Source of the DNA: an uncultured Bacilli bacterium
GTDB lineage: Bacteria; Bacillota_I; Bacilli_A; RFN20; CAG-826
Direction of reading: 5' to 3'
NCBI GenBank assembly: GCA_905236715.1
Contig: CAJOMQ010000001.1
Coordinates: 7,211-71,210, forward strand
DNA: 64,000 nucleotides
This document shows positions 4,809 through 37,568 of this stretch, one piece after another. The notes under the pieces are model-generated. The model did no database searches and was not told the DNA's origin. It saw nothing but the letters and a program-made list of their open reading frames with translations. Made by a program: the position numbers and the translations under genes. The number at the start of each line of letters is the position of its first letter. Position 1 is the stretch's first letter.

Positions 4809-5480
4809 ATGACAACATTTGCATGGATTAAATTGATCATTGTACTAGCCTTTATTGCCGTAATCGTTTTACTTTCGATAAACAAATTAACGCCAAAAAA
4901 GCATTTAATTTCGACGAAAATGATTACTGCGACTGGTATCTTAACAGCGGTAGAAATAGTTTTACAAATTGCTGGTAATTTTATCGCTATTGGACCAGTA
5001 AGTATTAATTTATCCCTTATTCCGATTGCTTTAGGCGCTATATTATATGGCCCATTTTGTGGAGCATTCCTCGGATTTATTAATGGATTATCGGTATTAT
5101 TTGCTCCCTCCACATTAGCGGTATTTATGCCCATTAATCCCGTTGCTACTATTTTCTTATGTATTTTGAAATCTACATTAGCAGGATTATTTGCGGGATT
5201 AATTTATTTACCATTCAAAGAAAAACGCCAATTTGTGGGTTCTATCATCGCATCGATGATTGTTCCGATTGTTAATACTGGCTTATTTGCCATTGGTTCT
5301 TTAATATTCTTTAGACCATTTTTAGACGCTGTAGCGGTGGGATTCCCTAATTTATACGCCGCTTTATTTATCGGTGTTATTGGCTGGAATTTTGTCTTTG
5401 AATTTTTGGTTAATACCGCTTTATCTCCAGCTTTAGCGCGTGTAGTAAAAATAATGCAACATAAACAAGTTTATGCCTAA
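4809..5480 (+). CDS. ECF-transporter S (substrate-capture) component-like membrane protein, folate-family-like
   Basis: 223 aa with ~6 TM segments. ITATGILTAVEIVLQ ... IPIALGAILYGPFCGAFLGFINGL matches the pattern typical of ECF S components. Confidence 0.55.
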   Translation: MTTFAWIKLIIVLAFIAVIVLLSINKLTPKKHLISTKMITATGILTAVEIVLQIAGNFIAIGPVSINLSLIPIALGAILYGPFCGAFLGFINGLSVLFAPSTLAVFMPINPVATIFLCILKSTLAGLFAGLIYLPFKEKRQFVGSIIASMIVPIVNTGLFAIGSLIFFRPFLDAVAVGFPNLYAALFIGVIGWNFVFEFLVNTALSPALARVVKIMQHKQVYA

Positions 5481-11544: not shown

Positions 11545-12663
11545 ATGTTTTTAAATAGCTATATCAAAGAATATGGAAAATATAGCTTTGCCCAACGTCC
11601 CTTTAATGATGTCGACGCCCTTGTCCTTTCGGAAATATCATATTTAAATTTAGACCGCGTTATTAATAAGAAAAACGACGGTTCTTTTGTTATTAAAGAC
11701 ATTGATTTAAGTAATATTGATGAATTAACTGCCCAACAAAGCGACATGAAAAAGAATAAAATCATGCTCCCTTTGTTAATGAAAGCCAAAAGATACAAAG
11801 ATTTAGTCATCAGTGATGTGGAATTCCGCAACGACAATGAGGAAGTTTGTCAATTTTATGCCATAACTATCTTCTTTGAAGATAAGATGTTTCTTTCTTT
11901 CCGTGGCACCGACTTAACTTTAAGGGGTTGGAAAGAAAATTTGGAAATGTCTTATAAAAACATCATACCCGGTCATAATGAGGCTATTAGATATACCAAA
12001 AAGATATTAAAAAAATATGATTTCCCCTTTTATTTAGGCGGTCATTCCAAAGGCGGCAATCTCGCTGTTTATGCTGGCATTAAAATGCCAATTGAACATT
12101 ATTCGCGTTTACAACATATTTATACCTTTGATGGGCCTGGCTTTTTTGATGAAAAATTAGTGAAAAATATCGAAGAATCACCCCTTCATAAAAAAATCAT
12201 CAAATATGTACCGAAAGAATCAGTCGTGGGGATTGTTTTAAAGCACACCAAAACCGCGAAAATTGTCGATGCTGTTTCCGTTGGCGTCTTACAACATGAC
12301 CCCTTTAACTGGAAAATTAATGATGATGGCACTTTTAAATTATTAAAAAGACGCGCAGTTATTTCCTATATCAATGAAAAATCATTAAATAATTGGCTTG
12401 ATAGTTTAAAAACAGAAGATATTTTATTGATGTCTGATATTTTATTTGCCTCTTTTGATGATTTGAGCATTGATTTAATCCAAATCAAAAAGAATTGGTG
12501 GGATACTTTCCATAAAATCCATCAACAATATTTAAAATTAAGTAAAGAAGATAGATATCGTGTGAGAGATATCTGGTTTAAATTAATTAAAAGTAACGCG
12601 AAATCAACAGTCACTTTAATAAAAGAACAAACGAATAAAAACCGCAAAAAGAAATCCAGCTAA
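11545..12663 (+). CDS. Mbeg1-like (DUF2974) alpha/beta-hydrolase, lipase-like
   Basis: A nucleophile elbow GGHSKGGNLA lies in a 372-aa protein. The start is 1 nt after the rbfA stop. The family was assigned from memory of the GHSKGG signature. Confidence 0.6.
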   Translation: MFLNSYIKEYGKYSFAQRPFNDVDALVLSEISYLNLDRVINKKNDGSFVIKDIDLSNIDELTAQQSDMKKNKIMLPLLMKAKRYKDLVISDVEFRNDNEEVCQFYAITIFFEDKMFLSFRGTDLTLRGWKENLEMSYKNIIPGHNEAIRYTKKILKKYDFPFYLGGHSKGGNLAVYAGIKMPIEHYSRLQHIYTFDGPGFFDEKLVKNIEESPLHKKIIKYVPKESVVGIVLKHTKTAKIVDAVSVGVLQHDPFNWKINDDGTFKLLKRRAVISYINEKSLNNWLDSLKTEDILLMSDILFASFDDLSIDLIQIKKNWWDTFHKIHQQYLKLSKEDRYRVRDIWFKLIKSNAKSTVTLIKEQTNKNRKKKSS

Positions 12664-12679
12664 TGCTGGATATTTTTTT
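12654..12679. terminator. Bidirectional intrinsic terminator between convergent genes
   Basis: atccagc-taat-gctggat hairpin with T-runs on both strands. Confidence 0.7.
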
Positions 12680-13859
12680 AATACGCTAAGGAGTCGAGTT
12701 TCTCTACGTGATCAGTTAATTTCTCAATACAGAATTTTCTTCTATTTTCATCTTCTGGATAATATATGAGCGCTCGAGAATAGAATAAGATATAGGCTAA
12801 TGTTTCCACTTTTAATTGGATTTGTGCTTGTTCTTCTTGACTTCTATCTCCATATAATTGTTGGAAAATACCTTGATATAAATTTAAACAAATTTGTTTA
12901 TCTAAATCTAAAAATCTCTTGGTGTTTCCGGGATCGACTTGTTCATATGTCACATAAGTGAGATAAAACGCCACGACATCGAAGATTTCATGTCCTTTAG
13001 ATAAAGTATCCATATCAATGAGAATTGGCTCGTTATTTTGCACTAAAATGTTTTTTACGTGGCAATCCCCATGCACCATGAAGTCCACATCAGGGATCGT
13101 TTCGATTAATTGTTCTAATTTTTCATAAACATTTTCATCGAGATGACCTTTAATAGTTTTCATCCAATCTTTCGTGGCCTCTTTGGCATATGGTAAATCT
13201 TTGGATAAAACCGTAGTGGAATTAATCTTTTTCACTAAATCAGCGTGCATTTTCACATATTCAGCAAATTTATTGGGATTATCTCTAACTAAATCACGTA
13301 AAGATTTCGCTTCTAATAATTCAAAGACAGAACCATAACATTCTTTGCCTTGTTCTTTGACTTTGACGATGTCATAACTAATGGCAGTGGGAATGCCTAA
13401 GATAAAAGCGGTTTTCGCTAATTTTCTTTCTCTTTTCACATCATCAATGGCGCCCCCACGGAAATAGACTTTCACGATTGTGTCAGGAGAAATACGATAA
13501 ACACGGCCATAAAAGCCTTCACCAATGATTGGACAACCTTCAATCGAAACTTCTTTTAAGACTTTTTCGATATCAATGATATCGGTAAAACCAGTCATTT
13601 CAAAAATGTCATAAACTTCGTTTTTGACATCTAAAACACGAATGTTTTCATATAATTGTGATAAACGTAAAACAATTCTTAATCCGACACTAGAAATATA
13701 ATTGAGATTAATCGCGTCGAGCACTAATTTTTGAAAACCATTATTTTCATTAATAATGTTATTGATAGTGTCTTCGACTTGTTGGGCATTAGAAGTATCA
13801 ATTGTCGGTGGTAATTGGATCGTCAATTGTTCATCTTCGTAATTAAATAATAATTCCAT
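12678..13859 (-). CDS. STAS (anti-sigma-factor-antagonist) domain fused to an APH/protein-kinase-like phosphotransferase domain
   Basis: Residues 1-100 look like SpoIIAA/RsbV, with NYISSVGLRIVL carrying candidate phospho-Ser56/57. Residues ~105-393 carry GEGFYGRVY (Gly loop), IVKVY (Lys), HGDCHVKNIL (catalytic loop) and LIDMD (metal-binding Asp). Confidence 0.75.
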   Translation of the reverse strand: MELLFNYEDEQLTIQLPPTIDTSNAQQVEDTINNIINENNGFQKLVLDAINLNYISSVGLRIVLRLSQLYENIRVLDVKNEVYDIFEMTGFTDIIDIEKVLKEVSIEGCPIIGEGFYGRVYRISPDTIVKVYFRGGAIDDVKRERKLAKTAFILGIPTAISYDIVKVKEQGKECYGSVFELLEAKSLRDLVRDNPNKFAEYVKMHADLVKKINSTTVLSKDLPYAKEATKDWMKTIKGHLDENVYEKLEQLIETIPDVDFMVHGDCHVKNILVQNNEPILIDMDTLSKGHEIFDVVAFYLTYVTYEQVDPGNTKRFLDLDKQICLNLYQGIFQQLYGDRSQEEQAQIQLKVETLAYILFYSRALIYYPEDENRRKFCIEKLTDHVEKLDSLAY

Positions 13860-13861
13860 AA

Positions 13862-16750
13862 TTATTTATTTCCCCCATCCTTGTTCTTTAAATATTTTTG
13901 TAAAATTAAGACGTTTTTATTATTTTGATAATAATAATGATATTTATCCATGAAATTTTTCACCATATAAATACCTAATCCACCGATTTTTCGATCTTTT
14001 AGTTCGGTAGTGATATCGGGATCCGCTTTTTCTAACGGATTAAATGGTTCGCCATAATCAGAAATAGTTAACGCTAATTGTTCAGGAGTGATATCTAAAG
14101 AAACATATATTTTTCCTTTTTTCTTCGCGTAAGCATATTTCGCGGAATTAGAGAATATTTCATCATAACAAACTAAGGTTTTATTGATGATTTCTTGGGG
14201 AATATTTTCTTTCTTTAAATCGATTGATAAATCTTCTTTGGCTTTGGCAAAATTAGAAATAACACCATCATATTCATAACGATAGTGACGAGCAAAGCCG
14301 TAATAGGAGAAAGTTAATAAAGTAATATCATCACTTTGTTCATATTCGCCAACAAAATCACGATTATCATTTAGCACATTTTCGCATATCTTTTGTGGAT
14401 CAATAGTGGCCAATTTATTCACATAATCTAATAAGCGTTGTTCTCCATACATGGATGAAGAACTATTTTTCGCTTCCGTGATACCATCGGTATATAAAAG
14501 GATGACATCGCCTGGACTTAATTTAAATAATTGTCTTTGATATGGAGCGCGTGATAAACCACCTAAAACTAAATTTGGAACACTCTTTAAATATTCATAT
14601 TTACCATTATGTTTAATTAGTGGTGGATTATGACCCGCATTAACGTATTCCACAACCCCGGTATCGTAGTGGACCACACCAATCCAACAAGTCACAAACA
14701 TTTTCGCTTCATTATTCGTGCATAATTGCATATTTGTGTGTTTGATAGCTTCTTCCACACTCATACCGGTTTCTAATAAAGATTTAATTAAAGTCTTGGT
14801 GCGCATCATAAATAATGCCGCCGGTATGCCTTTACCAGAAACATCCGCAATAAGGATAACAAAACAATTATTATTTAAGGGGAAATAATCATAGAAATCC
14901 CCACCGACAACTTTTGCCGTCACCATTTCCGCATAAATATCAAAATCGTGGATATCGTAATATGCTTCATTAGGAGGTAAGGCCCCCATTTGAATGGCTT
15001 TCGCGTTTTCCATTTCTTTTTCATTGATGGCTTTTAAGGTCTTCACAGTTTCATTAATAGAGCCATTTAATTCGCCAAAATCTTTGGAATTATGACTATC
15101 TAATACGACATTTAAATTACCTTCAGTAATTTCTTTTAATCCGGTATTCACTTTGTCTAAATCGCGTAAGACATAATGTTGAATGATGCCATATGAAAGC
15201 CAATAAATAATGCCAAAAATAATGAATTGTTCATAAGTAGCAACATAAATGGACATTTCTCTCGCAAAAAGAATTTCGCTATCAAGCATCACCGCGGTGA
15301 TGTAATAAGCTTCTTTTTCTTGTGATAAGAAATGAATTTTATTGATTTCTCCGCCGATTTTTACCGTACCACGATAAACTTTTAGCATTTCCATTTTGCT
15401 GGTATCACCATCATATTGGAAATCGGTTATTTCATGTTCGGTGTCACTGGCTTCCGTCATCGTGACGAGGTTGCCATTAAAATCAGTGACAATAATAAAA
15501 CCATTTTCACCCACGCGTTTATTACGGACCGTTTTTTCAATGGTGTCTTCTAAATTTTTATAGAATAAAGTGCTATTATAACCAACTTGTACAAAACCAC
15601 TGAAAGACAAATCTTTTCCAGCATATTTCATATCGGTTTCATTATCCGCGCCTATTTTCCGATATGCTTGGACATATTCTTCTTCCCCATTAACGAGAAG
15701 ATGATCATAAAATTCTCTCGGTTGGGGACCATTATTTTTCATATCAAATTGTTCATCCACCCAACGGGAATCAGAAGAAATCACAATGATGCCATTTTCA
15801 TCAATGATATTGATTTCGGATACTTCAAAATGCACGCCACCAAATAAATCAGGAGTGATTAGTGATAGTAAATAACTATTATCAATAATTTCACTATTGC
15901 TATTTCTTGTTTCTAAATTTTCGGCGATTTGACGAGTCAAATTTAACAAATTTTCATCCGCTCGATCTTGGACATCGTTAGTCACCTCTACTGCATCATT
16001 AATCAAAGTGTTTTTAGCGTTATTTTCCGCGATTTGGGATTGGATATCAAAAGTAAAGATGAACATGGCTCCATAAGCGAATAATACGGCGCCAAATAAA
16101 GACAATTGTAAAACCGTGGAAATCCGCCAATTATGGCGAGAGACACGAGCCGCTCTCCAATCGTGCGAAAATAATTGAATAAGACCAACACCCAAACCAA
16201 CAGAAATGGCGACACCAATAATCATGGGGTTACCAATTTTACTGACATAACTAAATGCCGTGGTGGTATCGGTCATATTAGTGACAAATATCATCAAAAT
16301 ATGACTAGTTTCTAAGACAGCACCAATTAAAAGACCTTGATACCAAGTTGGTCTTCTTTTTCTAAAGAAAACAAAATGTAACAAACTAGCGGAAGCACCG
16401 GAAATAAAGGTGGAAATACTACACGCTAATTGGGTGTAATATGTTCCTTTCCAGAAAGCGGAAAGGAATCTTTCAAAGCCACCGATAAAGCCTGATATTA
16501 AACCAGCTGGCCAGCCAAAGCATAAACCAGCAATAATCGGTGCGGAATCACGGACATTTAAAACAGCTCCATTACTTTGCACACCAAATTCGGTACATAA
16601 AACAGCAATGATACCAAAACCAACACCAAAAATAATTTGTTTGATCCAATAATTTAATTTATGAAAAGCGGTCTTTTCTAAAAAATAAAAACCAACCGCT
16701 GTAATAGGGGCTAATAAAGCGAATAATCCTAATAATAAATATGGAACCAT
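13862..16750 (-). CDS. Membrane sensor: LytS-like 5TM module + extracytoplasmic domain + HAMP + PP2C/SpoIIE phosphatase + RsbW/SpoIIAB-type GHKL kinase domain
   Basis: Residues 1-195 form a multi-TM region with NVRDSAPIIAGLCFGWPAGLISGFIGGFERF. TM segments lie at ~209-234 and ~505-525 and flank a ~265-aa loop. The PP2C motifs are GGDFYDYF, ADVSGKGIPAALFM, NAGHNPP, LYTDGITEA and SDDITLL (about 14306-14998). The C-terminal domain carries DEIFSNSAKYA, DYGEPFNP and GGLGIYMV (about 13886-14278). Confidence 0.8.
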   Translation of the reverse strand: MVPYLLLGLFALLAPITAVGFYFLEKTAFHKLNYWIKQIIFGVGFGIIAVLCTEFGVQSNGAVLNVRDSAPIIAGLCFGWPAGLISGFIGGFERFLSAFWKGTYYTQLACSISTFISGASASLLHFVFFRKRRPTWYQGLLIGAVLETSHILMIFVTNMTDTTTAFSYVSKIGNPMIIGVAISVGLGVGLIQLFSHDWRAARVSRHNWRISTVLQLSLFGAVLFAYGAMFIFTFDIQSQIAENNAKNTLINDAVEVTNDVQDRADENLLNLTRQIAENLETRNSNSEIIDNSYLLSLITPDLFGGVHFEVSEINIIDENGIIVISSDSRWVDEQFDMKNNGPQPREFYDHLLVNGEEEYVQAYRKIGADNETDMKYAGKDLSFSGFVQVGYNSTLFYKNLEDTIEKTVRNKRVGENGFIIVTDFNGNLVTMTEASDTEHEITDFQYDGDTSKMEMLKVYRGTVKIGGEINKIHFLSQEKEAYYITAVMLDSEILFAREMSIYVATYEQFIIFGIIYWLSYGIIQHYVLRDLDKVNTGLKEITEGNLNVVLDSHNSKDFGELNGSINETVKTLKAINEKEMENAKAIQMGALPPNEAYYDIHDFDIYAEMVTAKVVGGDFYDYFPLNNNCFVILIADVSGKGIPAALFMMRTKTLIKSLLETGMSVEEAIKHTNMQLCTNNEAKMFVTCWIGVVHYDTGVVEYVNAGHNPPLIKHNGKYEYLKSVPNLVLGGLSRAPYQRQLFKLSPGDVILLYTDGITEAKNSSSSMYGEQRLLDYVNKLATIDPQKICENVLNDNRDFVGEYEQSDDITLLTFSYYGFARHYRYEYDGVISNFAKAKEDLSIDLKKENIPQEIINKTLVCYDEIFSNSAKYAYAKKKGKIYVSLDITPEQLALTISDYGEPFNPLEKADPDITTELKDRKIGGLGIYMVKNFMDKYHYYYQNNKNVLILQKYLKNKDGGNK

Positions 16751-16796
16751 GAGTTAATTATAAAACAGTGGTGGATTTTATAAAATCCCTTTTTCT

Positions 16797-17990
16797 TTAA
16801 TATGTCTTTTTAAGGGGAAAATGTTTAATTCCGGCTTCAAGGAATTCTTCCCCAATTATTTCGTATCCTAAGGACAGATATAAAGGCAAAATATCACTCA
16901 TTGAATGAATATAAATAGTGCACGGATTATATTTATGACCAATTAAATCACCTAAAAAATTAATCGCTGAAGAAGCATAGCCATGATGTCTTTCTTCTTT
17001 GATAATCGCCACACGTTCTATCTTATAGCCATCTTCATAAGGCCGATAACGGATGCAGCCAATCGGGTTATCCTTTAGATAAATAAGGAAATTGTGCGAA
17101 TCTTTTTCCGTATTTAAATCAATTTCATCCGCAAAAGAAATACCATATTCTTCCACAAAACAGCGATATCTAATATCAGACATAATAGCCATTTGGTATG
17201 AATCAATCACCGGTCTTAAAGTTAAGCCTTCATTATTTAATTGATAGGCAATATCTTCACCCCATAAATCCATTTGTTCATATTTAGATAACATCTTGAT
17301 GAAATTTTCTTGGGCTTGTGGGTAAGAATGATAAATATCATTCATGAGATTTTTAATATCTTCTCTAGTGGTGGTTTTATCCGCGGGGCAATGCGAATCA
17401 AAAACGGGTAGATTCTCTTCTTTCACTAATCTTTTAATTTCATTTTCATGTGTCAATATAAGAGGACGAATAAAAGTGATATCCGCTTTCGCTAAATGCA
17501 TTTTCGGTGAGAAAGTAGCAATACGCGAACCATATATTTCATTCATCATTAAAGTTTCAATCGCATCATCCGCGTGGTGGGCGAAAGCCACTTTATTAAA
17601 AGCAATCTCATTTGCCACTTTATTAATCGCCGCTTTTTTCATCCGGGAGCAAATAGAACAGGGAAGATGCTTTAAATCTTGTTTCTCTTGCTGAATTTTT
17701 AAAATCTTATATACTTCGCGACAATCAACGACCATTAACTCCAAACCAATAGAACGACAAAATGTCACCATAGGTTGAGGATTAAAATTTGGAAAACCCA
17801 AATCCAAAGTGACCGGTTGAAGCTTAAAATCAGTGTGAGAAAATTTCTGATATAAAGTCAAACAATAGGTTAAAGCAATACTATCTTTTCCGCCTGATAA
17901 ACCGATGACAATTTTATCGCCATGTTCAATAAGATTATAGGTGCTATCAGCTTTCCTGATACAAGCCAAAACCGTTCTAATTGATTTCAT
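16797..17990 (-). CDS. TtcA-like PP-loop ATPase (tRNA thiolase family) fused to a C-terminal GNAT acetyltransferase domain
   Basis: SGGKDS PP-loop, CSICSRMKK and a later HCP (TtcA-type Cys triad), and HHADD. The C-terminal ~140 aa (about 16800-17228) have a GNAT-like pattern (ERVAIIKEERHHGYASSAINFL). Confidence 0.7.
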   Translation of the reverse strand: MKSIRTVLACIRKADSTYNLIEHGDKIVIGLSGGKDSIALTYCLTLYQKFSHTDFKLQPVTLDLGFPNFNPQPMVTFCRSIGLELMVVDCREVYKILKIQQEKQDLKHLPCSICSRMKKAAINKVANEIAFNKVAFAHHADDAIETLMMNEIYGSRIATFSPKMHLAKADITFIRPLILTHENEIKRLVKEENLPVFDSHCPADKTTTREDIKNLMNDIYHSYPQAQENFIKMLSKYEQMDLWGEDIAYQLNNEGLTLRPVIDSYQMAIMSDIRYRCFVEEYGISFADEIDLNTEKDSHNFLIYLKDNPIGCIRYRPYEDGYKIERVAIIKEERHHGYASSAINFLGDLIGHKYNPCTIYIHSMSDILPLYLSLGYEIIGEEFLEAGIKHFPLKKTY

Positions 17991-34639: not shown

Positions 34640-37474
34640 TTAATCAGCAGGCATAACAATGATTTTGATAGTCATTGTTGTCTCATCAACTTTGTCAGCT
34701 CTAACAAGAATGGTGTTACCTTCAAATGTTTGATATACATAATAGAAATATGTCATATTAGCAAATGTTCCATCACCATCAAAATTATATCCTAAAGCTG
34801 TCCATGTTCCATAAGCCCATGTGCCGTCACCTTGTGTTAATACATAATTAACATACCAACCAAAATAACTAACGGAATCTTCATAAACGACTGTTACAAT
34901 ACCATCATCACCAGTGGTTGTAGTAACTGGATCAGCATCCACAATGGAGGTGAAATATGGTGTTAAATATTCGGCAACAGCGGCAGGACTCCAAGCTTTA
35001 ACATCAATCACATCTTGCGCTGCTTTAGCATCGTTAACATATAATGTTAATTGAACTAATTTAGTTGTTTTGTTATATTGAACAACAACGAATTCACCAG
35101 TTGTAGCGTTATAAAGACCAACTGTTTGCAAGAATTCTTTTACAACATAGTTAGCGGTTCCTAAAGCTTCATAGTAGCCATTAACGATAGTCTCGATGTT
35201 ATCACTGTCACCATAGGTGGCGGTGATAGTGTAGATTAAGGTCATGCCATATTCTTCATAATCATCGTCAAAGGTTCCTTCGTTACCCCAGTTAACTAGA
35301 TAATTGGAAGCACCAGCTAATTCTGGTAAAGCACTAGCGAAATCATAAGATGTACCAGTTAAATCACTGGCTTTAGATTTGGCTCTATCAACATATTCCG
35401 CTTTAGCGGCATCCCATGTAGCGAAACTAGCAGTGACATAAATGCCAGAGGCAACGGCATCATCACTCAAATTGTATAATTCGAAGAAAACAGTTGTATC
35501 AGTGGCTTTCGCATCGCTGAGAATGACAAATTCATTAGATGTGGCATTGAAATAACCATCAGTTCTTGTTGTATTGAAGGTTTTTGCTTCAAATCCATTA
35601 TCGAGTAAGAGTGTTTTTAAGCCGGCAACAAATGTTGTGGCATTTTCACCATCTGGCAAAGTATCTTTTAACACTAATGTGAATTCGTAATCAGTAAATT
35701 CACCTTTCTTTTCAAAGAGACTTTGGTAATAAGATTCGTAGTAGTAATCAAAGATAATTTGATCAACATATCCTTCAGGCATAGCTGGGATTTGAGAAGC
35801 GAAATCAGTTGTACCAAAGAAATCATTTACTCTAGCTTCATAGCCCGCTTTAACAACAGCGGCATCAGCATTGGTAATATTTGTGGATTCCCAAATACGG
35901 AAGAAAATATAAGCAGCTGGTTTAGCTTGTCCAGGAATTTCTCTTGAATCAACTTCAATGGTAAATCCTTCGAATGTATAAGTCGCAGCCCAACCGTTAT
36001 AGCCTAATTCTGTAGTAGCATCATGAGGTTTCACGGCTTCTTTAGTGCCTTCTGGTAATAATACAAGTGCTAAAGTGTCGATGATTTCATCATAAGCATA
36101 ATAATATCCACCATAAGTCCAATATTCTCTACCAAAATCAACATGTTCGATATTGATATCGTTTTTGTTTTTACCCATAGTAACATTTACTTCACCTAAA
36201 ATGCTCAAAGCAGTCCATGGGAAGGCTTTTGCAAAGAAGTCGACGTTAATTGTAGAAGAGGAACCTTGTTCGATGGTTAAAACAGCTTCCACTTTACTTG
36301 CTGCATCAACTAATTTGTAAGCATATTCATTTTTGTCACTATCTGTGTTGACTGTATCAAGACTCCATCCGTCTGTTAAGGCATTAGCTTTTGTCACGAC
36401 AGAAGTAATTGCATCATTGAAATTACCGGCTTTGACGTTAATTGTGGCTTCAAAAGCGCCGAAATCTTTGGCGTCTTTAGCAGGAATAGCAGCGATTTGC
36501 CATGAAGCAAAATTATTAATATCACCGTGGAAATAAGAATCATCCGCGAGATAAGAAATGAGGTTTGGATTATCATCGATACCGATATTTGGTAAAGCGG
36601 TTTCTAATCCTTCAGCAGCGATATCAATAACATCTTCCCATTTATCTAAGACTAAGGTGCTACCTTCATCGATATCAAACCATTCATCATCAAGGATCAT
36701 GCCTAAGCCACCTTCACTGAGAGAGTAGAAGAAGTGAGCATCTAAAGAAATGACATCACCAACATCAGCATCAGCAAAGCATTCTTCTAAGAATTCAAAA
36801 GTTTCATCAGCTAATTCGCCAGGAACTTTGACAAACATTGGACAAGTGTTATCAAGATCATCCAAGTCTAATTGTTCACCAGGGAATGTCACATAGAAAG
36901 ATGTGGCTTCTCCAGCGGCTAATTTGTCCGCTTCTGGTAATGATGCTAATTGGAAATCAACACCATAGAACGGGAAAGCGGAAAACGTTTTATTAAATTG
37001 GTTTTCGTAATAATATCTGTTGACATAACTTGACCAGGTGTAAACGCTACCAGCGCCTGCTTCTTCTAATGTCACTTCAGCTTCATCAACGAAAACACGA
37101 CCATCTTCAGAAGCTACTTTACCTTTAACGGTGACAACATCTTTATAAGCGAAATCGCCAGCTTCTTTTTGATGTATTTCAACACCTGTTAAATCAGAAT
37201 AATATTCAACGTCTGTTTCATTAACAAAGAGGACATTTCCATATCTTCCAGAAACAGCAGCGCCAGAGAATTCAACATATTGTCCATCTAATGTATAAGA
37301 TCCATCGGATTCAATTTGATTAATTTGACCCGCTGTCACTTTTTTGTAGACAATTGTTTCTTCTCCAGAACTTGATTCATCACTCTGACTATTACTAGGT
37401 GTTTTATTTCCACAGCTAGCGACCATCGCGACTACTGCGGAGCAAGCTAGAATTTTCAGTAAGTTCTTTTTCAT
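34640..37474 (-). CDS. Very large (944 aa) acidic surface lipoprotein with internal divergent repeats
   Basis: The start at 37474 (MKKNLLKILACSAVVAMVASCGNK, lipobox VASC) follows an aggag SD. Ser-rich linker. Repeated modules share DFAS-x-(I/L)P and G(Y/L)(F/Y)NAT(S/T)-x-EFV(I/V). Confidence 0.7.
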   Translation of the reverse strand: MKKNLLKILACSAVVAMVASCGNKTPSNSQSDESSSGEETIVYKKVTAGQINQIESDGSYTLDGQYVEFSGAAVSGRYGNVLFVNETDVEYYSDLTGVEIHQKEAGDFAYKDVVTVKGKVASEDGRVFVDEAEVTLEEAGAGSVYTWSSYVNRYYYENQFNKTFSAFPFYGVDFQLASLPEADKLAAGEATSFYVTFPGEQLDLDDLDNTCPMFVKVPGELADETFEFLEECFADADVGDVISLDAHFFYSLSEGGLGMILDDEWFDIDEGSTLVLDKWEDVIDIAAEGLETALPNIGIDDNPNLISYLADDSYFHGDINNFASWQIAAIPAKDAKDFGAFEATINVKAGNFNDAITSVVTKANALTDGWSLDTVNTDSDKNEYAYKLVDAASKVEAVLTIEQGSSSTINVDFFAKAFPWTALSILGEVNVTMGKNKNDINIEHVDFGREYWTYGGYYYAYDEIIDTLALVLLPEGTKEAVKPHDATTELGYNGWAATYTFEGFTIEVDSREIPGQAKPAAYIFFRIWESTNITNADAAVVKAGYEARVNDFFGTTDFASQIPAMPEGYVDQIIFDYYYESYYQSLFEKKGEFTDYEFTLVLKDTLPDGENATTFVAGLKTLLLDNGFEAKTFNTTRTDGYFNATSNEFVILSDAKATDTTVFFELYNLSDDAVASGIYVTASFATWDAAKAEYVDRAKSKASDLTGTSYDFASALPELAGASNYLVNWGNEGTFDDDYEEYGMTLIYTITATYGDSDNIETIVNGYYEALGTANYVVKEFLQTVGLYNATTGEFVVVQYNKTTKLVQLTLYVNDAKAAQDVIDVKAWSPAAVAEYLTPYFTSIVDADPVTTTTGDDGIVTVVYEDSVSYFGWYVNYVLTQGDGTWAYGTWTALGYNFDGDGTFANMTYFYYVYQTFEGNTILVRADKVDETTMTIKIIVMPAD

Positions 37475-37568
37475 AAATATCTCCTTTCGCAAAAAATATA
37501 GCTTGTCAAAAAGATATGCCAAAACGAAAATTCTTGCAACTATTTTTTATTGTAAATAATAAATAATG

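Follow-up and report, generated by a model that had tools for sequence, protein, structure and literature searches.

What does a partner-switching module control when no sigma factor is encoded nearby? The question is raised by two adjacent genes in a 64,000-nucleotide (nt) stretch of DNA from an uncultured Bacilli bacterium (contig CAJOMQ010000001.1, positions 7,211 to 71,210 of the forward strand), hereafter called the window. Gene 1 codes for a membrane sensor in which a PP2C phosphatase is fused to an RsbW-type serine kinase of the GHKL class; gene 2 codes for a STAS domain fused to a kinase-fold domain of the APH type (STAS-APH protein). Partner switching is taught as a sigma-release device; only a few cases are known to control something else, and only one recent case is known to be enzyme-fused. 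We regard the domain content and layout of the two proteins as practically certain. We also consider it rather probable that they form a sigma-independent partner switch, in which the gene 1 product would set the phosphorylation of Ser57 in the gene 2 product and in this way gate the fused kinase.

Domain organisation of the gene pair

13862..16750, minus strand: gene 1, membrane sensor with fused PP2C phosphatase and RsbW-type Ser kinase (open reading frame of 962 aa; Pfam; AlphaFold)
12678..13859, minus strand: gene 2, STAS-APH protein (open reading frame of 393 aa; Pfam; AlphaFold)

The first-pass annotation of this locus, made by a model from the DNA letters, had described two minus-strand open reading frames (ORFs) of 962 and 393 amino acids (aa) lying 2 nt apart, in exact agreement with our ORF calls. 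Among the domains which it expected hidden Markov model (HMM) searches to find, PF07694, PF07228, PF13581, PF01740 and PF01636 were all matched, and PF00672 gave a sub-threshold match in gene 1. The motifs it quoted are all present, and their key residues are invariant across 66 homologues of gene 2 (40–70% identity) and 43 homologues of gene 1; these two sets underlie all statements on residue conservation below.

Gene 2: STAS domain and APH-fold kinase in one protein

13551..13826, minus strand: STAS (SpoIIAA/RsbV-like) domain, aa 12-103 (PF01740, E 6.3e-10)
13689..13694, minus strand: codons of Ser56-Ser57, Ser57 being the predicted phospho-acceptor (translation YISSVGL)
12693..13544, minus strand: APH/ChoK-fold kinase domain, aa ~106-389 (PF01636 at aa 112-299, E 1.4e-9)

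The family profile of gene 2 matched SpoIIAA (E 1.3e-11) and RsbV (1.3e-6) in the PDB. The YISS(V/A)GLR loop is invariant in the family, and among individual STAS residues the same is true of S56, S57, G59, L60, R61, T89 and G90. The NYISSVGL segment had been proposed to carry the equivalent of the phospho-acceptor serine, and the alignment bears this out, with Ser57 placed opposite the phospho-acceptor Ser58 of SpoIIAA.

The second domain matches PF01636 with 38.5 bits against a cut-off of 23.2 bits. Its Gly-rich loop (G113/G115), beta3 lysine (K130), alphaC glutamate (E144), catalytic loop (H263-G264-D265-x-H267-x-x-N270) and metal-binding segment (I281-D282-M283) are all invariant, so a kinase fold with catalytic Lys, Asp and Asn, read earlier from motifs, stands in a proper alignment. 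A pseudokinase was considered and rejected, since every catalytic residue is invariant.

The AlphaFold model of the gene 2 product has a pLDDT of 94.2 and a pTM of 0.82. In Foldseek searches with it, all matches were small-molecule kinases belonging to the APH/ChoK superfamily (11–18% identity), namely APH(3'), maltokinase, MTR kinase, choline kinase, APH(2''), APH(4) and amicoumacin kinase; the APH fold is thus certain. The model is also confident through the linker between the two domains, where K99, S105 and G108 are nearly invariant. Together these features suggest that the STAS and kinase domains are held in a fixed arrangement rather than by a loose tether.

The best NCBIfam match of gene 2 is TIGR02172 (E 3.5e-29, 102.2 bits), below the cut-off of 228.2 bits. 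TIGR02172 is the closest named family, gene 2 not being a member by the curated threshold. It is a family without known function. PDB sequence searches with the gene 2 protein and with the family profile returned STAS relatives and marginal APH matches only, which gave no substrate assignment. No defence-system family in PADLOC matches gene 1 or gene 2, so a defence role is not supported.

Gene 1: a membrane receptor with opposed phosphatase and kinase domains

16175..16660, minus strand: 5TMR-LYT transmembrane module, aa 31-192 (PF07694, E 3.9e-22)
15236..16048, minus strand: extracytoplasmic loop, dCache-like, aa ~235-505 (AlphaFold layout; homologue matches)
15032..15178, minus strand: HAMP linker, aa 525-573 (PF00672, E 0.0033, below the Pfam cut-off)
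14309..14869, minus strand: SpoIIE/RsbU-type PP2C phosphatase, aa 628-814 (PF07228, E 6e-53)
13895..14218, minus strand: RsbW/SpoIIAB-type GHKL serine kinase, aa 845-952 (PF13581 HATPase_c_2, E 1.6e-20)

The cytoplasmic half of the protein carries the two activities expected of a switch. In the phosphatase the metal-binding aspartates D618, D636, D755, D807 and D808 are invariant and D621 is nearly so; in the kinase, which has the N, G1 and G2 boxes, E864, N868, G923, G924 and G926 are invariant, D898 and G900 nearly invariant. Judging by these residues, both activities look intact. NCBIfam models for RsbW (1e-10), SpoIIAB (1e-7), SpoIIE and SiaA match gene 1, all with scores far below the equivalog cut-offs. 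Identification of gene 1 as a true SpoIIE or RsbW was therefore rejected: the protein uses the domain types of SpoIIE, SiaA, RsbW and SpoIIAB, yet is none of them.

The AlphaFold model, built from the 43-sequence alignment (pLDDT 85), opens with a bundle of helices (aa 2-195). Two long helices (210-284 and 490-542) then enclose a pair of alpha/beta modules, and a HAMP-like helix (556-590) leads into the PP2C (about 600-830) and GHKL (831-953) domains. Its top PDB match in Foldseek is 3KE6, the RsbU+RsbW part of Rv1364c (E 5.6e-17, 21% identity over 359 columns), so the comparison with Rv1364c drawn in the first-pass annotation was apt. The next matches are the PP2C domains of RssB, SiaA and SpoIIE.

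On the input side, the 5TMR-LYT module scores 79.1 bits against a cut-off of 24.6 bits and is found in all 43 homologues. The following loop of ~265 aa had been presumed to be a ligand-binding domain. The layout of the model, in which the two alpha/beta modules (312-392 and 418-489) lie between long helices, fits a double Cache domain, and dCache_1 (PF02743) was detected in three of the 43 homologues and also in P0196, while Pfam matches nothing in the loop of the window protein itself. A dCache chemoreceptor model appears at rank 26 among the Foldseek matches. A double-Cache domain is a likely assignment. HAMP is recognised in 25 of the 43 homologues, with a best E of 2.6e-7. The combination of 5TMR-LYT, SpoIIE and HATPase_c_2 is seen in about 67 protein clusters.

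ECF-ribofla_trS matches nine of the 43 gene 1 homologues, and an ECF S-component ORF in the window (4809-5480, plus strand) weakly matches 5TMR-LYT (3.6e-4). These cross-matches may reflect a common small-ligand-binding membrane fold.

Conservation of the pair and of its partner-switching neighbours

STAS-APH proteins constitute a large but unstudied family. Of 8000 candidates scored in a database search with gene 2, 6571 proved to be relatives. The best 120 of them are almost all about 390 aa long, and 116 of these 120 contain both Pfam STAS and Pfam APH domains; where public names are given, they are 'anti-sigma factor antagonist', 'phosphotransferase' or 'TIGR02172 family'. An exhaustive profile search (E <= 1e-30) yielded about 1000 clusters when grouped at 50% identity. 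When one genome per species was scanned, at least 557 stretches matched, most of them in Erysipelotrichaceae, other Bacilli and Clostridia. The best 80 of these stretches come from Erysipelotrichaceae, other Bacilli metagenome-assembled genomes (MAGs), Lachnospiraceae, Oscillospiraceae, Christensenella, Coprococcus catus and one Spirochaetaceae MAG. The STAS-kinase-fold arrangement had been flagged as uncharacterised; this agrees with our literature search (see below), but with so many clusters the arrangement is not rare.

Genes 1 and 2 also stay together, as had been expected for related genomes. At 67% identity the pair is found in the same nusA-infB-rbfA / truB-ribF-rpsO-pnp surroundings as in the window, and it is kept at 54% and at 49% identity, each time in an unrelated context. 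Conservation of a pair across differing contexts marks a functional cassette.

For a wider census, ORFs were called in the fetched loci and searched with local HMMs whose seeds were the window domains and one HD_4 neighbour; same-strand genes within three genes were counted in the 72 species loci where the STAS-APH ORF was recovered. A GHKL kinase is present near STAS-APH in 48 loci and a PP2C phosphatase in 38, in 35 cases fused to GHKL. An extra stand-alone STAS gene was found in 30 loci and a 5TMR module in eight. Altogether, 54 of the 72 loci have at least one partner-switching component. Natural fusions of the GHKL-STAS-APH and STAS-APH-GHKL types occur as well, and they are an independent tie between the kinase and this STAS domain.

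The stand-alone STAS proteins (~98 aa; e.g., L015:5234-5530 and L057:9289-9585) have the YISSAGLR loop, as in STAS-APH, and are probably substrates of the same kinase. Since the fuller operons (STAS, PP2C-GHKL, HD_4, STAS-APH) contain two STAS proteins, a true partner switch between them could operate there. The window has the minimal form, sensor plus STAS-APH, which is most simply read as direct phospho-control.

Three loci from Bacilli/Erysipelotrichaceae MAGs (L032, L061 and L069), where neither HD_4 nor any partner-switching gene is close by, have a ~380-aa protein directly upstream of STAS-APH (L032:6558-7742, L061:6871-8004, L069:6844-7980); the L032 copy, which was the one scanned, has DUF5677.

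Is a sigma factor the target?

The absence of a sigma or anti-sigma target from the vicinity, remarked on in the first-pass annotation, was confirmed on a larger scale. ORF calling with Pfam revealed no sigma factor within about 8 kb on either side of the pair, and a Pfam scan of 19 further window ORFs of 135–328 aa found no sigma or anti-sigma domain. Neither kind of gene is conserved beside the module across the 72 species loci. Apart from the families counted in the census, no neighbour family occurs in more than four of the 72 loci, which argues that a sigma factor is not part of the module.

The pair could still be a classical partner switch whose sigma factor is encoded elsewhere in the genome, with the GHKL domain as the anti-sigma factor, gene 2 as its antagonist and the APH domain as an accessory or sensory appendage. 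All three canonical protein types are indeed present, the closest structure (Rv1364c) is from a SigF-linked protein, homologues of gene 2 are publicly annotated as 'anti-sigma factor antagonist', and CrsR, a fused PP2C-GHKL regulator, sequesters sigma-S. However, neither the vicinity of the pair nor the 19 other scanned ORFs contain a sigma gene, and no sigma-like family recurs beside the module in the 72 loci. Invariant catalytic residues would be unexpected in a mere appendage, and GHKL is here part of a membrane protein. We therefore consider classical sigma control quite unlikely.

Substrate of the fused kinase

Relatives of the window pair offer a hint at the substrate. An HD_4 gene coding for a RelA/SpoT-type hydrolase of ~190 aa is present near STAS-APH in 30 of the 72 loci (e.g., L009:7424-8008, L015, L018, L029 and L035), always directly upstream. 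The gap between the two genes is -38 to +21 nt in 29 of these 30 loci, and HD_4 often overlaps the start of STAS-APH. The HD_4 proteins are small-alarmone-hydrolase-like and retain the H..RK..HP.E.A and LHD..ED motifs. In some loci without HD_4, the same position is taken by a HAD_2 phosphatase (L025), a Cof-type HAD protein (L054) or a weakly matching PHP-like protein (L026), which brings the loci with an HD_4, HAD or PHP-like phosphohydrolase directly upstream to 33 of 72.

Fusions point in the same direction. Among the 150 best cluster representatives we found HD_4-STAS-APH, HD-CE-STAS-APH, STAS-APH-PHP and a fusion of STAS-APH with the head domain of polyA/CCA nucleotidyltransferase; the longer fused members of the family, including the GHKL fusions described above, are P0348, P0267, P0264, P0322, P0230, P0236 and P0329. 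The PHP part of STAS-APH-PHP is closest to 3',5'-nucleoside bisphosphate (pAp) phosphatase and RNase RNM. When the PHP, HD-CE and PolyA_pol segments were searched for in 80 loci, only the weak PHP-like neighbour in L026 was found, which means that these fusions are rare; single STAS-APH fusions could in some cases be gene-calling artefacts.

The presence of interchangeable, non-homologous phosphohydrolases beside a kinase suggests a writer/eraser pair acting on a small phosphorylated molecule, possibly on a nucleotide ribose phosphate. The substrate of gene 2 is most probably a small hydroxyl-bearing metabolite or a nucleotide.

Two other roles for the kinase have to be weighed here. One keeps the phospho-STAS switch and makes the APH fold a YihE/SrkA- or CotS-type protein kinase in a cascade on protein targets. 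The APH fold is common to protein kinases, and gene 2 weakly matches NCBIfam models for YihE/SrkA (a Ser/Thr kinase; PRK11768, 2.2e-6), CotS, Bud32 and RIO. These matches are far below the family cut-offs, though; the best structural neighbours are all small-molecule kinases, and the recurrent partners HD_4, HAD and PHP are phosphohydrolases of small molecules or nucleotides, not protein phosphatases. Taken together, a protein-kinase cascade seems unlikely.

The other role is inactivation of an antibiotic or xenobiotic, where the dCache/5TMR receptor would detect the compound and switch on the APH kinase post-translationally. Kinases of aminoglycosides, hygromycin, spectinomycin and amicoumacin belong to the APH family and are among the best fold matches, and the receptor has an extracytoplasmic domain of ligand-binding type. 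Against this, identity to the resistance enzymes is 11–18%, no NCBIfam resistance family matches gene 2, and the gene, which is chromosomal, has housekeeping neighbours and is conserved in many gut Firmicutes. Nor does it fit a detoxifying kinase to be encoded together with a hydrolase by which the modification would be reversed (HD_4, in 30 of the 72 loci). We find this role very improbable.

A more specific version of the sigma-independent switch can be suggested from the upstream HD_4 genes and the HD_4, PHP and CCA/polyA fusions, all of them found in relatives. Gene 2 might be a STAS-gated kinase for the 2'- or 3'-hydroxyl of the ribose in a nucleotide or at an RNA/tRNA 3' end, and would in this way make an alarmone-like signal of a new kind or block translation reversibly. 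HD_4 would then act as the specific eraser, whose place PHP or HAD phosphatases take in some genomes, and the receptor would control the writer/eraser pair via partner switching. This is a tentative proposal, to which we give a small chance of being right.

Proposed mechanism

We expect the sigma-independent switch to operate as follows. The gene 1 product would be a membrane receptor composed of the 5TMR-LYT bundle, the extracytoplasmic dCache-like domain and the HAMP linker, with PP2C and GHKL opposing each other in the cytoplasm. A ligand or a membrane state would act through HAMP, most likely on the adjoining PP2C domain, as in other regulated PP2C phosphatases; the adjacency of HAMP and PP2C makes the phosphatase the likely regulated arm. 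We infer that the GHKL domain phosphorylates the STAS domain of gene 2 on Ser57 and that PP2C removes the phosphate, so that the receptor signal would set the fraction of phospho-STAS. The STAS state, in turn, would control the APH/ChoK-fold kinase of the same protein, through an allosteric effect or by keeping the kinase bound to GHKL at the membrane. In All4160 the phosphorylated STAS domain is inhibitory, and on this analogy the unphosphorylated form of gene 2 is probably the active one. The output would be an ATP-dependent phosphorylation reaction, not transcription.

Several observations weigh against this scheme. In 15 of the 72 loci none of GHKL, PP2C, STAS, HD_4 and 5TMR was found nearby, although several of these loci are on short contigs. 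A sigma factor may be encoded elsewhere, beyond the 64-kb window, and fused PP2C-GHKL proteins can still bind sigma factors, as does CrsR of Shewanella. The weak matches of gene 2 to protein kinases belong to the same side. Finally, the window copy has no adjoining phosphohydrolase, and the substrate hint comes from relatives only.

If the sigma-independent switch is real, a large family, mostly from gut and rumen Firmicutes, would have a phospho-STAS switch wired to a kinase-fold enzyme, and a membrane receptor could thereby drive a phosphorylation reaction post-translationally. In view of the frequent pairing with a RelA/SpoT-type hydrolase, abundant gut bacteria might possess a phosphorylated nucleotide signal not yet described. 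The system is compact, with two genes, identifiable activities and one predicted phospho-site, and is therefore directly testable.

Putative transcription signals and surroundings of the pair

16757..16784, minus strand: promoter-like site 5' of gene 1 (TTTATA-16-TATAAT, 10/12 matches; consensus match only)
12654..12671, both strands: bidirectional terminator-like hairpin 3' of gene 2 (7-bp stem, T-runs on both strands; consensus match only)

The promoter-like site has the joint-best score in the region and is located within the 46-nt gap that follows a TtcA-like gene. The gene 2 ATG is 2 nt from the gene 1 stop and is preceded by a purine-rich stretch (GGGGGA). The terminator-like hairpin starts 6 nt past the gene 2 stop and separates gene 2 from a convergent Mbeg1-like gene. 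Together, these putative signals and the 2-nt gap outline a self-contained bicistron.

The neighbours of the pair in the window are NusA, IF2, RbfA, an Mbeg1-like hydrolase, a TtcA-like PP-loop/GNAT fusion, TruB, RibF, S15 and PNPase. The Mbeg1-like gene (11545-12663, plus strand) codes for a lipase-class alpha/beta hydrolase (PF11187, 6.6e-58) and is inserted between rbfA and the gene pair; the same arrangement is present in the 67%-identity relative L091. On the other side, 46 nt upstream of gene 1 and on the same strand, a 397-aa protein (16797-17990, minus strand) has a TtcA-like PP-loop domain for tRNA thiolation (NCBIfam TtcA, 2.4e-48, under the cut-off), followed by a GNAT acetyltransferase domain at the C-terminus. 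This gene is syntenic in L091 and not in L092.

Local HMMs for STAS, GHKL, PP2C and HD_4 match nothing in the window beyond genes 1 and 2. A 960-aa ORF (34640-37522, minus strand), which has no Pfam match at E <= 0.001, is not a paralogue of gene 1. Two ORFs of ~190 aa (721-1299 and 1361-1942, both on the plus strand) have no Pfam match.

Comparison with known systems

The pair shares its PP2C phosphatase, its GHKL serine kinase and its STAS domain with a phospho-serine loop with the RsbU/RsbV/RsbW-sigmaB and SpoIIE/SpoIIAA/SpoIIAB-sigmaF switches of Bacillus. It differs from them in that no sigma factor was found in the ORFs and loci scanned, the kinase and the phosphatase are one membrane protein, and the STAS domain is joined to an enzyme; in addition, the NCBIfam scores for SpoIIE, RsbW, SpoIIAB and SpoIIAA fall far short of the equivalog cut-offs. 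Rv1364c of M. tuberculosis (PAS-RsbU-RsbW-STAS in one chain, PDB 3KE6) has the same PP2C-GHKL di-domain in the same order. In our case, however, STAS is in a separate protein together with APH, the input is of the 5TMR-LYT/dCache-like/HAMP type instead of PAS, and there is no SigF link. 5TMR-LYT inputs of the LytS/YhcK type are themselves a described family.

One protein combining an RsbW-like kinase with PP2C and acting on a STAS protein is also known from HsbR/HsbA (Pseudomonas), CrsR/CrsA (Shewanella) and SypE/SypA (Vibrio fischeri). The outputs of HsbR and CrsR are partly sigma-independent. SypE is a fused kinase-phosphatase acting on the STAS protein SypA, whose output is sigma-independent (PMC10120452). 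These regulators are soluble, controlled by receiver domains and have single-domain STAS partners, while gene 1 has no receiver domain.

Non-sigma outputs of an RsbW-like kinase acting on a STAS-like protein are exemplified by CapK/CapS and by SiaABCD (Pseudomonas), the PP2C domain of SiaA being both a sequence and a structure match of the gene 1 phosphatase. The CapK kinase phosphorylates a STAS-like protein, and the output is the DNA-binding repressor CapS (PMC13373217). Neither this repressor nor the diguanylate cyclase partner of the Sia system (SiaD) is a fused kinase-fold enzyme like gene 2. With the APH/choline-kinase superfamily (PF01636) gene 2 shares the fold and the full set of catalytic motifs, but its identity to any solved or characterised member is 11–18%, and it has a STAS domain attached, for which the literature searches gave no example among characterised members.

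Literature searches on STAS with APH or phosphotransferase, on TIGR02172, on 5TMR-LYT with PP2C and STAS, and on SAH with APH found no description of this architecture; in particular, no paper was found in which STAS is fused to an APH-fold kinase or STAS-APH is linked to RelA/SpoT-type hydrolases. What is already known is the PP2C-GHKL fusion (Rv1364c, HsbR, CrsR, SypE) and the sigma-independent output (SypA, SiaC-SiaD, CapS, All4160). The first-pass annotation regarded a non-sigma antagonist tied to an enzyme as a departure from classical switching. The STAS-enzyme fusion is indeed seen here, but sigma-independent outputs have precedents in CapS and, with STAS fused to an enzyme, in All4160.

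The closest functional precedent is the All4160/HenR/Alr3423 system of Anabaena, where an N-terminal STAS domain is fused to a glycosyltransferase and STAS phosphorylation is inhibitory (bioRxiv 10.64898/2026.04.08.717354). All4160 resembles gene 2 in carrying its STAS domain at the N-terminus of an enzyme and in being controlled by the phospho-state; it differs in that the enzyme is a glycosyltransferase, the host is a cyanobacterium, and the kinase and the phosphatase are separate proteins encoded elsewhere, whereas in the window they form a single membrane receptor encoded next to its STAS-bearing partner.

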